DNA of 64,000 nucleotides from an uncultured Alphaproteobacteria bacterium. Its GTDB lineage: Bacteria > Pseudomonadota > Alphaproteobacteria > Methylaequorales > Methylaequoraceae. Every line of letters begins with the position of its first letter. Positions within the stretch are counted from its first letter, which is position 1. This document shows, piece by piece, positions 22,041-25,693 of this stretch. The translations under genes were made by a program, and so were the position numbers. The stretch covers positions 6,081 through 70,080 of the forward strand of contig CACBON010000006.1 of assembly GCA_902540805.1 (NCBI GenBank), in the 5' to 3' direction. The notes under the pieces are model-generated. The model saw only the letters and a program-made list of their open reading frames with translations. It did no database searches and had not been told where the DNA came from.

Positions 22041-22595
22041 TTATTCTTTTTCGATTCCAATTTCATAAAGTTCGAAATTAGCTTCTTCGATTTCTCCAGT
22101 AACTGCATCAACATCAACTTTTATTTCATAACCTGTGTTAGTTTGAATATCAAATTCGTAGGTTAATGTCCCATCCATACCAATTTCTCTTTCTTCAGCT
22201 ACTATTCTTCCAGGATGAATTTTCAATGCATAATCTTTAGCTTGTTGTATTGTAACTTTGGCTCCACTCTTGAAAATAGGGTTGTTCTCGTCAACTTCCC
22301 TTTCAACTTCTATGATGAAGCCCTCTTCTGCATTACATTCAACGTTGTACGTCGAACCATCTTTAGATGATTCAATATCAAACTCATAGATAGGATCATC
22401 TCCTTCGATTTTAAATTCTAACTTTCTAGCATGACCAGGAACTGTGTCGTAAGCTTGATCAAGACATTGTTCAACTTTAACAATGTCGTATAGCTTAATG
22501 TCGTCAAGGTCAAAATTATCATTAGCTTTTGCTACACTGTTGACTACTAAAAAAGGCATTAGCGCAAAAATATAAAAAAAATAATTTTTATTCAT
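22041..22595 (-). CDS. Periplasmic tandem-PepSY protein, lanpepsy (LanP)-like putative lanthanide-binding protein
   Basis: Signal peptide (..SVAKA), two PepSY repeats each with YEFDI and V-x-x-(N/D)-A-x-x-G-x-I-x-E, two Cys (QCL, VEC), very acidic, C-terminal LYEIG; ATG 22595 preferred over TTG 22604. Confidence 0.75.
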   Translation of the reverse strand: MNKNYFFYIFALMPFLVVNSVAKANDNFDLDDIKLYDIVKVEQCLDQAYDTVPGHARKLEFKIEGDDPIYEFDIESSKDGSTYNVECNAEEGFIIEVEREVDENNPIFKSGAKVTIQQAKDYALKIHPGRIVAEEREIGMDGTLTYEFDIQTNTGYEIKVDVDAVTGEIEEANFELYEIGIEKE

Positions 22596-22640
22596 AGTAT
22601 ACAAATAGTCAAAATTAGACTTAAAAAAACTTATTTTATT

Positions 22641-25151
22641 TTACCATGTGAATTTCATGCCACCAAAGACTGTAAGTGGTTGACCTGGTGTAACAAAAGT
22701 TCCACTACCTCCTGTTCCGTCCACCTCATTTTCAGCTAAAATTCCACCACTCTCAAAATTTGTATCTAGAAGATTTCTTCCTTCAAGAAATATGGAAGTG
22801 CTGAATCCAGCTATATCAGCATTAGCTCTTGGAACTGTGTATTCCATGGAAGCGTTTAGAAGAAAATAGCCAGGAACTTGTTTTCCTTCCGCATTATTTT
22901 CGTCACCTCTGTAGAACTGCCTTGAATTATATTCTGTGTCTACAAATAATCCTAAACCATCAAAAGGGATAAAACCAATGCCAATCCTACCAATGTGCGG
23001 AGATATACCAGGAATAGCGTCACCGGGCCCCACTTGAATTTGATATGATTCTTTGGCTTCACAAGACGCTTGATCAGCTGTAGCTGCGGCATCACCACCA
23101 GCACCATATTCTTCAGGGCCTTCACACGGATGAGGATTTTCTGAGTGTCCAGCACTTGCAATCTTTTGATGAGTTTCAAATGAAGCCCTAACATATGAGT
23201 AGTTACCGTACCAAGTAATGTTTTTTCCCAGTTTACCATTTATAGCTAATTCAGTACCCATTCTTTGAGTATTACCAACGTTTCTAAAATAACCTGTCCC
23301 AACTCTGTTTCCACCAATAAAAATGATGTCATTAAAGTTTCGTCCAGCAAAAGCTGTTGCATTCCAATTAACACTGTGATCTAAACCAAATAAATTAAGA
23401 CCGTCTTTGACGCCCCTTGCCCCAAACTCAAAGCTTCTATTTTTCACTTCATCTAAAGGAGGGTCAGCTTGAAATGAGTTTGGAAGTCTGCACGGTTGAG
23501 CGGGGTCAGCACAACCAAGCTCCGCAACTGAAGGGTTACGACTCGATTCTTTGTATGTCGCATATACTGTGGTATTACCAAACGCGAACGTATCGCCTAA
23601 CTTTCTTGTTATTCCAACCCCGGGGTTAAATTCATTGAAAAAATGATGTCCTTCAAGTGCCGAGGAGTATTGGTCTTCCATTTTAAGAGAAGCCCAATTC
23701 CATCTTCCAGACAAATTTAAAGAAGTAACATCATCTAAATCAATAGTGTTACTTCCATATAAAGCTAAGTTATGTGTTGTTGCTTCGAGATTTGTTATAA
23801 AAATGTTTTCACCCTCGGAATCTTGACTGAGAAGAACCCCAGTACCTTGAACACCTCTGTCAGACTGAATTATACCAAGTTCTGTCGAAGACGCAAAACT
23901 ATTATGCGAGAATTCATAAGCAAGGCCTGTAATGAGTGTGTTATTTTTATCATACAAACCATGATCAAGTGTTGACTGGAAGTTTACCCCCATTTGATTT
24001 TGTTTCGTGTTAGATCTATTAATTGCACCAATACTTTCAACTTCGTTCTCGTCATCCTCAAGCTCCAAACCAAGTGCGGTATAACTGATTGCAGCTCCAG
24101 ATAAGTCCAGATATTGTTCGTCAGAGCCACCAGTTACCTCTAACTCTGAACAAAGAATTCCATCAGCTGTTCCTTTTGTAAAATTGTATCCTTTTCCGCA
24201 ATCACCTGCTTCAAACTCATCACCATTATAATTTCTTCTTTCCATATGACGGTAGAAGATATTGCCCTGAAGCGACAACTTATCATTAACAAAATGATTA
24301 CCACCAAAGTTAGCATAATAATTTTTATTATGTGTATTATCAGGGTAGGTGTAAATAGCCTCTCTTCCTTCCAGATCCATTAATGTTAGAGGTACAGCAC
24401 CATTACCTCTTAAATCGGTATAGGCTTGACCAAAATTGATAAAAAGTTCTGTGTCTTCGTCTGGTCTGTATCTCACATCTCCGAAGAAAGTGTTCAAATA
24501 TGATTCAGAGTGGTCTCTGTAACCATTGTCGTAATTGAAATTTGCTCCTAAATATACCCCAAAATCTCCAAATTCTTGTCCATATTCAAAAATTTCATTC
24601 GTTCTTCCATGACTCCCTCCAGATGTAGTTAAGTTTGCACCTTGAAAATTAAAACCGTTCTTCATTTCCATTGTGATCGCCCCTCCAAGTGCGTTTTGAC
24701 CAAAAATTGGGTCACCACCCGTAAAAATTTGCATGCTATGTGTAGCAAAATCAGGAACTAAGTCCCATTGAACAACTTCTCCAAAAGATTCATTTATTCT
24801 CATACCATTCTGATAAACAGCTATAGATTGGGCTGTGCCTAAAAGAGGACCACCAACATAACCTCTAAAATTAATGTCATTCTGCATAGGGGAGCTATTT
24901 AAATTGAACAACGATATACCTGTTGTTTCTCTGTTTAATGTTTCTGTAATTGATAAATTCTTTTTTTTGCCAAGTTGGTCTCTATTAATTGTTTGAATTT
25001 TACCTGGAACCCTGTCGATATCTATGCCTGATCCTTGGACTGGTGATACGGATATTATGTTTACGTCGGGAGCGACATAGGTTTTGTCTTGGGCTAATGC
25101 GAGAGTTGAAGTGAGAACTAGAGCTGGGATCAAGAAATAATATTTGTTCAT
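22641..25151 (-). CDS. TonB-dependent outer-membrane receptor, LutH-like family
   Basis: Signal peptide, TonB-box-like PDVNII, plug (FRG..LLGT..AVYQNGMRINESFG..V.WDL, FGQNALGGA), ELGCADPAQPCRLPN..ADPPL motif, RGDENN, aromatic C-terminal beta signal (..GGMKFTW). Confidence 0.9.
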   Translation of the reverse strand: MNKYYFLIPALVLTSTLALAQDKTYVAPDVNIISVSPVQGSGIDIDRVPGKIQTINRDQLGKKKNLSITETLNRETTGISLFNLNSSPMQNDINFRGYVGGPLLGTAQSIAVYQNGMRINESFGEVVQWDLVPDFATHSMQIFTGGDPIFGQNALGGAITMEMKNGFNFQGANLTTSGGSHGRTNEIFEYGQEFGDFGVYLGANFNYDNGYRDHSESYLNTFFGDVRYRPDEDTELFINFGQAYTDLRGNGAVPLTLMDLEGREAIYTYPDNTHNKNYYANFGGNHFVNDKLSLQGNIFYRHMERRNYNGDEFEAGDCGKGYNFTKGTADGILCSELEVTGGSDEQYLDLSGAAISYTALGLELEDDENEVESIGAINRSNTKQNQMGVNFQSTLDHGLYDKNNTLITGLAYEFSHNSFASSTELGIIQSDRGVQGTGVLLSQDSEGENIFITNLEATTHNLALYGSNTIDLDDVTSLNLSGRWNWASLKMEDQYSSALEGHHFFNEFNPGVGITRKLGDTFAFGNTTVYATYKESSRNPSVAELGCADPAQPCRLPNSFQADPPLDEVKNRSFEFGARGVKDGLNLFGLDHSVNWNATAFAGRNFNDIIFIGGNRVGTGYFRNVGNTQRMGTELAINGKLGKNITWYGNYSYVRASFETHQKIASAGHSENPHPCEGPEEYGAGGDAAATADQASCEAKESYQIQVGPGDAIPGISPHIGRIGIGFIPFDGLGLFVDTEYNSRQFYRGDENNAEGKQVPGYFLLNASMEYTVPRANADIAGFSTSIFLEGRNLLDTNFESGGILAENEVDGTGGSGTFVTPGQPLTVFGGMKFTW

Positions 25152-25176
25152 ACTTTTACTTTTCAGAGGTATATAT

Positions 25177-25216
25177 GTCAATTTGACCATGCTATAAAGA
25201 AATTTTACCTTGTCAA
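25177..25216 (-). promoter_or_regulatory. Putative sigma70 promoter and palindromic operator of the TBDR-PepSY unit
   Basis: Minus strand TTGACA(25216-25211)-N16-TAGCAT, then GTCAA-N-TTGAC inverted repeat (25177-25187) over the expected +1. Confidence 0.5.
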
Positions 25217-25243: not shown

Positions 25244-25693
25244 ATGTTTGCTATATTTAAAAAATTAAAAAAAGAAAATCTTAAAACCCAAGAATTCTCA
25301 CCTATTGACAAAGCAATTTTAATATCAACACTTTTAGTTGAATGTGCTAGAAGTGATGATAATTTCACTGATACAGAGAAAGAGCAAATAAAAAAAATTT
25401 TAAAGAATAAGTTACATCTTGATTCTTCTGAAGTTGAAAAATGTTTTGAAATAGCTAATGAAAGTTCTGAAAAAAGCATTGAAATTTATTCATTAACTAA
25501 AGAAATCAGAGATAATTTTAACAAAGACGAAATACTCTTCATTTTTGAGTTACTTTGGAAAATAATTTTATCAGACAACGTCATCGATGATTTTGAGTCT
25601 TCAATGATGACAAAACTCACTGGACTATTTCATTTAACGGGAAAAGAAAACGCAGAGGCAAAAAAAAACGCACAAACTGCACTTAATCTTTAA
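25244..25693 (+). CDS. TerB-family protein
   Basis: LLVECARSD..F...E and LWKIILSD..IDDFE paired helical acidic motifs. Confidence 0.8.
   Translation: MFAIFKKLKKENLKTQEFSPIDKAILISTLLVECARSDDNFTDTEKEQIKKILKNKLHLDSSEVEKCFEIANESSEKSIEIYSLTKEIRDNFNKDEILFIFELLWKIILSDNVIDDFESSMMTKLTGLFHLTGKENAEAKKNAQTALNL

Follow-up and report, generated by a model that had tools for sequence, protein, structure and literature searches.

Lanpepsy (LanP, Mfla_0908) of Methylobacillus flagellatus is a strongly acidic, lanthanide (Ln)-binding protein with a signal peptide and two PepSY domains, and its structures are available in the apo form and bound to La, Nd, Sm, Gd, Tb, Ho or Yb (9VY3 to 9VYA; bioRxiv 10.1101/2025.10.21.683075, accessible part). 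Close LanP homologues are reported only from beta- and gammaproteobacteria in the accessible text of PMC9988556 and PMC12482762. Mfla_1253, which is a TonB-dependent receptor in the same bacterium, has been called an orthologue of the Methylorubrum extorquens receptor that is essential for Ln uptake (PMC9988556), and in M. extorquens the receptor gene lutH (META1p1785), which La represses, lies beside lanM (PMC7391723, accessible part), such that a small acidic periplasmic Ln binder, lanmodulin, is encoded next to an Ln receptor. For the TMED127 lineage, which had no cultured isolate at the time of that study, the accessible text of PMC12542740 reports xoxF5, pqq and lutABEFCG genes in a methylotrophy island and the lineage's own synthesis of pyrroloquinoline quinone (PQQ). 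The same text states that its authors found homologues of neither lanpepsy nor lanmodulin, and that additional ways of scavenging lanthanides must exist where these are at picomolar levels. Here we describe a putative LutH-type receptor gene directly followed by a lanP homologue in a 64,000-nucleotide stretch of DNA (the window) from an uncultured Methylaequorales alphaproteobacterium, an abundant methanol user of the ocean (GCA_902540805.1, contig CACBON010000006.1). Both parts belong to known lanthanome kinds, but neither this lineage nor this arrangement has been described for them. The locus probably serves the supply of Ln to XoxF5, as the outer-membrane and periplasmic front end in a TMED127/Methylaequorales methylotroph. 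An earlier note, made from the DNA letters alone, had read the pair as a minimal Ln-scavenging system, an interpretation that our analysis partly supports.

Judged from its sequence, the PepSY protein is a true LanP homologue. Pfam PepSY (PF03413) was recognized in two stretches of it (E 1.2e-15), which a profile scan of its own genome (G000) placed at C6:28163-28339 and C6:28382-28552, C6 being a contig number. Compared with all PDB sequences, its sole real match was 9vy3_A (E 1.2e-38), in an alignment that spans residues 10-153 of the 153-residue chain and residues 42-185 of the 187-amino-acid (aa) open reading frame (ORF), with identity in 74 of 145 columns (~51%, counted by hand on the printed alignment). 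This places the protein within the full-length similarity limits that Hemmann et al. applied to LanP homologues (coverage of at least 85%, E ≤ 1e-20) and bears out the earlier suggestion that it is lanpepsy-like. The copy in a Clade X metagenome-assembled genome (MAG; L021) gave E 2e-40 in the lanpepsy comparison. A third, single PepSY domain lies elsewhere in the genome (G000:C3:27278-27460), in a 112-aa open frame, with a score at the Pfam cut-off.

The likeness to M. flagellatus LanP extends in part to the details of the protein. The six bridging Ln ligands named in the preprint (D54, E68, E106, E108, E118 and E132), whose numbering fits the 9vy3_A chain, align by hand mapping to N, E, E, E, E and D, such that four of these six (out of 19 LanP ligands) are identical and one is changed from E to D. 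The Cys pair is also shared (Cys44 and Cys87; in a family alignment of 40 sequences C44 is invariant and C87 is present in at least 90%), as are strong acidity and a predicted fold of eight strands plus helices (AlphaFold model; mean predicted local distance difference test (pLDDT) value of 89.3, and ~98 across the mature part). The N-terminus is hydrophobic, ends in VAKA and has low pLDDT over its first 30 residues, as in a possible signal peptide, read by eye; the putative signal peptides of the receptor and the PepSY protein are MNKNYFFYIFALMPFLVVNSVAKA and MNKYYFLIPALVLTSTLALA, respectively. YEFDI is found at residues 70 and 146 and the C-terminus reads LYEIGIEKE, and all the motifs quoted in the earlier note, including the Cys motif of the receptor described below, are indeed present. 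In contrast to M. flagellatus, the host here is an alphaproteobacterium, and the gene lies directly downstream of a TonB receptor gene, whereas the locus tags Mfla_0908 and Mfla_1253 are far apart.

LanP relatives are numerous in environmental data. In a protein library clustered at 50% identity, 137 clusters matched LanP at E ≤ 1e-10 and nine at E ≤ 1e-30, and 449 proteins of a 90% library matched at E ≤ 1e-5; among the latter matches listed, the sources that were named were all Tara entries or generic JGI labels. The closest loci in species-representative genomes came from uncultured alphaproteobacterial single-amplified genomes and 'Rickettsiales' Tara MAGs. They include AG-892-F10, MED657, MED715 and MED652, which are named as TMED127/Methylaequorales and 'Clade X' in PMC12542740 (accessible part) and which support the earlier view of the host as a streamlined marine alphaproteobacterium. 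No match to LanP was found among plasmids. A Foldseek search of the PDB with the LanP model returned weak PepSY matches among those listed (4exr, E 5.7e-4, template modelling score 0.33-0.39); since no 9VY entry was among the matches listed (releases to 2026-04-08), this outcome is silent on likeness to LanP. 4EXR was also the top HHpred match for LanP in the lanpepsy paper (PMC9988556, accessible part).

The receptor appears to belong to the LutH-type clade, placed there via proxies from Methylovorus and Methylobacterium nodulans. It has the plug-plus-barrel composition of a TonB receptor (Pfam Plug, 6e-12; TonB_dep_Rec_b-barrel, 8.6e-31), and a TonB system is encoded in the same genome, with a TonB_C gene and two ExbD genes on contig C5. 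The motif ELGCADPAQPCRLPNSFQADPPL begins at residue 544 and corresponds to the clade motif EL.CA.P..PC.LPN.F.ADPPL (residues 544-566). All of the 15 clade members aligned keep this Cys motif, as does the M. nodulans protein; the other two TonB receptors of the genome, which lean to FecA-like and ZnuD/haem-like families, lack it. All five methylotroph genomes reached via LanP loci held one clear best homologue of the receptor (E 1e-103 to 4e-110, 34-38% identity). In Methylovorus, genes for an ABC ATPase and an FtsX permease precede the receptor, and a sigma-54 response regulator follows it in the same orientation. The latter two match the arrangement of Mfla_1253/1254 in M. flagellatus, a La-induced receptor followed by a sigma-54 regulator (PMC9988556, accessible part). 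Searched back, the Methylovorus receptor matched the window receptor alone among the three receptors of G000, a reciprocal best match. M. nodulans plasmid pMNOD02 encodes a homologue with 29% identity along its entire length (E 9e-93). Two genes away is one whose product matches lanmodulin (6mi5, E 5.2e-38), and a YncE-family gene is nearby; the setting recalls that of lutH beside lanM. These findings agree with the LutH-like character that had been proposed for the receptor, of the clade of Mfla_1253-type and lanmodulin-adjacent receptors. The pMNOD02 gene group itself (248913-256276; receptor, response regulator and lanmodulin homologue, with a YncE-family propeller and von Willebrand factor A proteins nearby) looks like a plasmid-borne lanthanide module.

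The receptor also differs from LutH. It is 29-37% identical to the proxies (which stand in for LutH in this comparison), it is encoded outside the lut cluster (~39 kb away in a colinear relative), and its partner is LanP, not LanM. The arrangement is therefore analogous to the lanmodulin-LutH pairing of Methylobacteriaceae with an unrelated fold, the putative binder being a PepSY barrel and not an EF-hand protein. Other searches with the receptor were less specific: its sole match in a single-sequence PDB search was the plug of the pyochelin receptor, the ESM Atlas returned generic TonB-receptor clusters only, and no match was found among phages. As for a siderophore receptor, an outcome that the earlier note had named as counting against its reading, the window receptor scored 50.9 bits with NCBIfam TIGR01783 (TonB-siderophore), below the cut-off of 223.5.

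By clade profile, the nearest solved receptors are PqqU/YncD (6V81, E 3.9e-35; 9C4O, E 1.4e-34), with siderophore-type receptors next (~2e-24). The signature PQQ-binding residues of PqqU (Y/F/W99, R304 and R365; PMC12124388, accessible part) correspond to L, M and F in the window receptor, and none of the three is found in 16 of 16 aligned clade members. Identity to PqqU is 20%, in an alignment that is uncertain beyond the plug, vs 30-37% to LutH-type proxies. In E. coli K-12, pqqU stands divergently beside yncE, and propeller genes of the YncE type also sit in lut clusters; this adjacency hints that PqqU and LutH modules share ancestry.

We surveyed 42 Methylaequorales genomes, nine of them of high quality, for the parts of the system. 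XoxF-type genes were found in 30 of the 42 (25 over the cut-off) and in 9/9 high-quality genomes, the receptor in 34 (9/9), and LanP in 29 (6/9), the latter being retained in 12 of 14 genera. The position of the receptor is fixed: in all 18 genomes that have it on one contig with xoxF, the two are 49-52 kb apart. A receptor homologue shares the LanP locus in 17 of 27 TMED127 loci: in 16 it is co-oriented with LanP and immediately upstream of it, and in one it lies 3 kb downstream. A further locus has a receptor start fragment at its end and nine have none, although in three of these nine the sequence upstream is shorter than 1.5 kb. Of the 27 genomes with those loci, 25 nevertheless have the receptor somewhere. 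In several TMED127 genera LanP is unlinked to the receptor. Receptor matches with stops were seen at G070:C24:171800-173125 (one TGA, one TAG, two TAA) and G054:C1:148316-150712 (one TGA), possibly owing to decay or assembly errors.

Linkage recurs outside the order. Among 53 LanP loci from outside TMED127, six have a 30-35% identical receptor within 6 kb, placed upstream, divergently or downstream. In Methylophaga the receptor homologue is 14-27 kb from LanP, and genes for a sensor kinase of the MoxY type and a regulator of the LuxR type are found two genes from LanP. At one such chromosomal locus (G029:C1:398000-417999), LanP stands by a malic enzyme gene, a LapD/MoxY-type kinase and a LuxR-type regulator; the next 16 kb contain a suf cluster and, after it, the receptor homologue. 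In a quick LanP tree the 27 sequences from TMED127 formed a single clade (support 100), nested within one of marine gammaproteobacterial sequences (support 99). The tree used Shimodaira-Hasegawa-like approximate likelihood ratio support (SH-aLRT) and a midpoint root, with ten distant representatives added by choice; tblastn matches were excluded if they were shorter than 140 aa or began beyond residue 40 of the query. The tree does not establish a donor, and as the root is midpoint only, a transfer is suggested and not shown.

The window's genome comprises 1.21 Mb in 39 contigs, has 29.8% G+C and is 74.7% complete. A search of it for an XoxF-type gene found none, the lone PQQ-repeat ORF being a 436-aa frame with 30 bits. 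We attribute the missing xoxF to an assembly gap and not to biology, because the flanking contigs break mid-gene and the island is present in a colinear relative, G001 (~95% amino-acid identity), which matches C6 from G001:C4:34.6 kb onward. Contig C38 (2.2 kb) matches G001:C4:1.6-4.9 kb, and C38 and C6 both end mid-gene at their facing edges (C6:1-807, outside the window). For the 30 kb of G001 between these two matches, nothing above paralogue level was found in G000. Within this missing stretch G001 carries xoxF (C4, 10.3-12.2 kb), and its lut-type ABC genes (TIGR03863/3864/3866, all over cut-offs) lie at C4:20.7-23.8 kb; its receptor is at C4, 63.7-66.2 kb, 51 kb from xoxF. The terms 'minimal' and 'stripped' in the earlier note thus do not hold, given the xoxF5, pqq and lutABEFCG island of the lineage (PMC12542740, accessible part) and the distance from the pair to xoxF in G001, whereas its proposal that the pair may serve dehydrogenases encoded elsewhere fits the data. 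Of the genome check that it had called for, TonB and the two ExbD genes were found, and the lack of xoxF in the assembly is explained by the gap.

The coordinates of the locus are collected in Table 1.

Table 1. Features of the receptor-lanP locus, in positions of the window
Feature	Position	Strand	Start	Length	Remark
lanP homologue	22041..22595	-	ATG 22595	184 aa	start picked by reading the DNA
Spacer	22596..22640	-		45 bp	receptor stop to lanP start
TonB-dependent receptor, putative LutH clade	22641..25151	-	ATG 25151	836 aa	start picked by reading the DNA
Promoter-like TTGACA-16-TAGCAT	25189..25216	-			5' of receptor; consensus match alone

Our reading of the DNA confirmed that the two genes are co-oriented and separated by the short spacer first described. 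The ORF list gives longer frames on the same strand (22041..22604, 187 aa, with a TTG start, and 22641..25190, 849 aa); the internal ATG taken as the likely lanP start gives a protein as long as the closest homologues. The single TTGACA promoter that had been proposed is present as a site (TTGACA at 25216-25211, then TAGCAT after 16 nt; 10/12 consensus matches), but it is not above chance, as promoter-like sites are as frequent in shuffled sequence (15 found in the region vs 13.8 ± 3.1 in shuffles). A second promoter-like site with 9/12 matches overlaps the spacer (22612-22584), and a scan of the spacer for a terminator-like site found none. Upstream of the pair are genes for TerB, DUF2805, CIA30, SelO and MarR proteins, and on the downstream side genes for a transporter (CitMHS), a peptidase (M17) and an ABC system of family 5. 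No lanthanide-related gene adjoins the pair in the window, as had been noted earlier. The TerB-family gene (window 25244-25693, + strand) is divergent from the receptor and syntenic in relatives.

The pair had also been singled out as acidic, Lys-poor and rich in G+C, and the values stand: the receptor has an isoelectric point (pI) of 4.6, 2.9% Lys and a gene G+C of 38.8%, the highest among long ORFs of the window, and the PepSY protein a pI of 4.25, 7.1% Lys and 33.2% G+C, against a median pI of 9.3 and median Lys of 11.1% (44 ORFs in the window that are 200 aa or longer) and a window G+C of 30.7%. They are not special to the pair, however. A second TonB receptor of the genome, on contig C15, has 37.0% G+C, 3.7% Lys and a pI of 5.1; the skew of the receptor therefore reflects its protein class, the outer-membrane barrel. 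Recent transfer as the cause of its raised G+C was rejected, as the C15 receptor is equally skewed.

Part of the stretch is present in 20 RNA runs from 15 studies. In the seawater metatranscriptomes, short contigs of 90-99% identity cover most of both genes in 4/4 runs examined; contig cover is absent 5' of the receptor in three runs, which is not evidence. A complex prediction for the mature receptor and mature LanP gave a score of 0.00 and a mark of 0.32, evidence neither way.

We propose the following route for Ln. The receptor, energized by the TonB-ExbD proteins encoded on contig C5, would carry Ln3+, free or chelated, across the outer membrane. The LanP homologue, exported to the periplasm, would bind several Ln3+ in the acidic lumen of its two-PepSY barrel and act as an Ln3+ buffer or shuttle. 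From there, the metal would pass to periplasmic XoxF5 and/or to the LutA-type ABC importer, encoded ~40-50 kb away in relatives. In this scheme the homologies, the receptor position, the linkage and the TonB/ExbD genes are the observations reported above, and we infer for which metal the two proteins are specific, in which direction it is handed on and that the two genes are co-transcribed.

Several observations weigh against this proposal. Some concern the proteins and the genome. Bridging ligand D54 is replaced by Asn in the marine protein, which, among the 34 positions that are acidic in LanP, has acidic residues at 24 and others at 10 (hand count). Receptor homologues of 29-33% identity occur on Burkholderia, Caballeronia and Sphingobium replicons with no lanthanide context seen; with such homologues in Burkholderiaceae and sphingomonads, the clade is broader than proven lanthanide receptors. 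The xoxF and lut genes were not found in this incomplete assembly, nor was pqqC (TIGR02111), whose profile matched no other genome either and is uninformative. Among the RNA contigs listed none bridges the spacer and carried-over DNA is possible, such that these data prove neither transcription nor a joint transcript.

Others concern LanP and its locus. No receptor homologue lies within 6 kb at 47 of the 53 LanP loci from outside TMED127. LanP is exactly absent at the site in three genomes of the same genus (L119/G056, L120/G055 and L121/G058), with just 33-165 bp between the receptor and the CitMHS gene. In AG-892-F10, the single-amplified genome on which PMC12542740 worked, the LanP gene (L015:6001-6552) is interrupted by an in-frame TAA where the first YEFDIES has its Glu, possibly a genuine nonsense mutation or else an error of single-cell sequencing; in AG-907-I19 (L087:6001-6357) it is decayed, with an in-frame stop and similarity lost after about residue 120, and the receptor is intact. 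LanP was also not found in three of the nine high-quality genomes of the order and is therefore dispensable, as a lanP deletion in M. flagellatus also suggested (PMC9988556, accessible part). The receptor of the LanP-less genomes is 65-86% identical to that of the window, vs 89-93% for the flanking CitMHS; the receptor thus evolves much faster than its neighbours.

Three other explanations for the pair were weighed. That it acts on a different cation (Fe3+, Ca2+, uranyl or some other hard cation) or on a siderophore, with the PepSY protein as a general acidic metal buffer, we regard as distinctly unlikely. PepSY proteins such as UipA do bind uranyl and Fe3+ (PMC9988556, accessible part), the pyochelin receptor plug and the weak NCBIfam match point toward siderophores, and receptor homologues occur in non-methylotrophs. 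However, the NCBIfam score is below its cut-off, and the closest characterized relative of the PepSY protein is LanP specifically. Outside TMED127, methylotrophs make up most of the nearest LanP relatives (Methylophaga, Methylophilaceae, Methylovorus and Methylococcaceae), the receptor keeps its place near xoxF across the order, and for iron or zinc the genome encodes two further receptors, of FecA-like and ZnuD/haem-like affinities.

It is very unlikely, in our judgement, that the adjacency is incidental, with the receptor as a lanthanide gate and LanP as a mobile accessory gene that acts independently (for example in storage or detoxification) or is decaying. Such independence would fit the exact absence of LanP in the three same-genus genomes, its damage in 2 of 27 loci, its separation from the receptor in several TMED127 genera and the nesting of its clade among gammaproteobacterial sequences in the quick, midpoint-rooted tree. 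It fits less well with linkage that recurs in unrelated gammaproteobacteria in different orientations, with retention in 12 of 14 genera, and with the nearness of LanP to a receptor homologue and a MoxY-type sensor kinase in Methylophaga. Finally, import of PQQ or a PQQ-metal complex by the receptor, as in E. coli PqqU/YncD, with LanP a bystander or handling released metal, is highly improbable: the profile similarity, the shared YncE-type neighbours and a metal modelled beside PQQ in some homologues (PMC12124388, accessible part) stand against the missing signature residues, the lower identity to PqqU than to LutH-type proxies and the reported ability of TMED127 to make its own PQQ (PMC12542740, accessible part).

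The supply of Ln to XoxF5 by the pair thus remains the reading we favour. A bolder version of it, which we consider unlikely, is that TMED127 takes up picomolar seawater Ln without a small-molecule lanthanophore. The receptor and LanP would then form a dedicated two-protein relay, in which LanP is a high-capacity sink loaded at the periplasmic face of the receptor that pulls metal inward for XoxF5; within such a relay, LanP acting outside the cell like a hemophore would be less likely still, and would likewise draw the metal inward.

We did not find the LanP-receptor pair of TMED127 in the literature on lanpepsy or on TMED127, in searches none of which joined PepSY with marine terms. The accessible text of PMC12542740, in which genes were sought by product name, is without the words 'TonB', 'receptor' and 'PepSY', and the nonsense codon of AG-892-F10 together with product-name searching may explain why LanP was missed there.

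Our findings provide two concrete candidates for lanthanide scavenging that most genomes of the order encode: a receptor of the LutH clade and a homologue of LanP. They extend the range of LanP to an alphaproteobacterium and reveal a genomic linkage of LanP with a lanthanide-type receptor that is not mentioned in the accessible parts of the literature consulted. The marine LanP, with its altered ligand residues, may be of interest for protein-based rare-earth separation. If the relay is true, it would feed XoxF5, the top-transcribed methanol dehydrogenase of the oligotrophic surface ocean.

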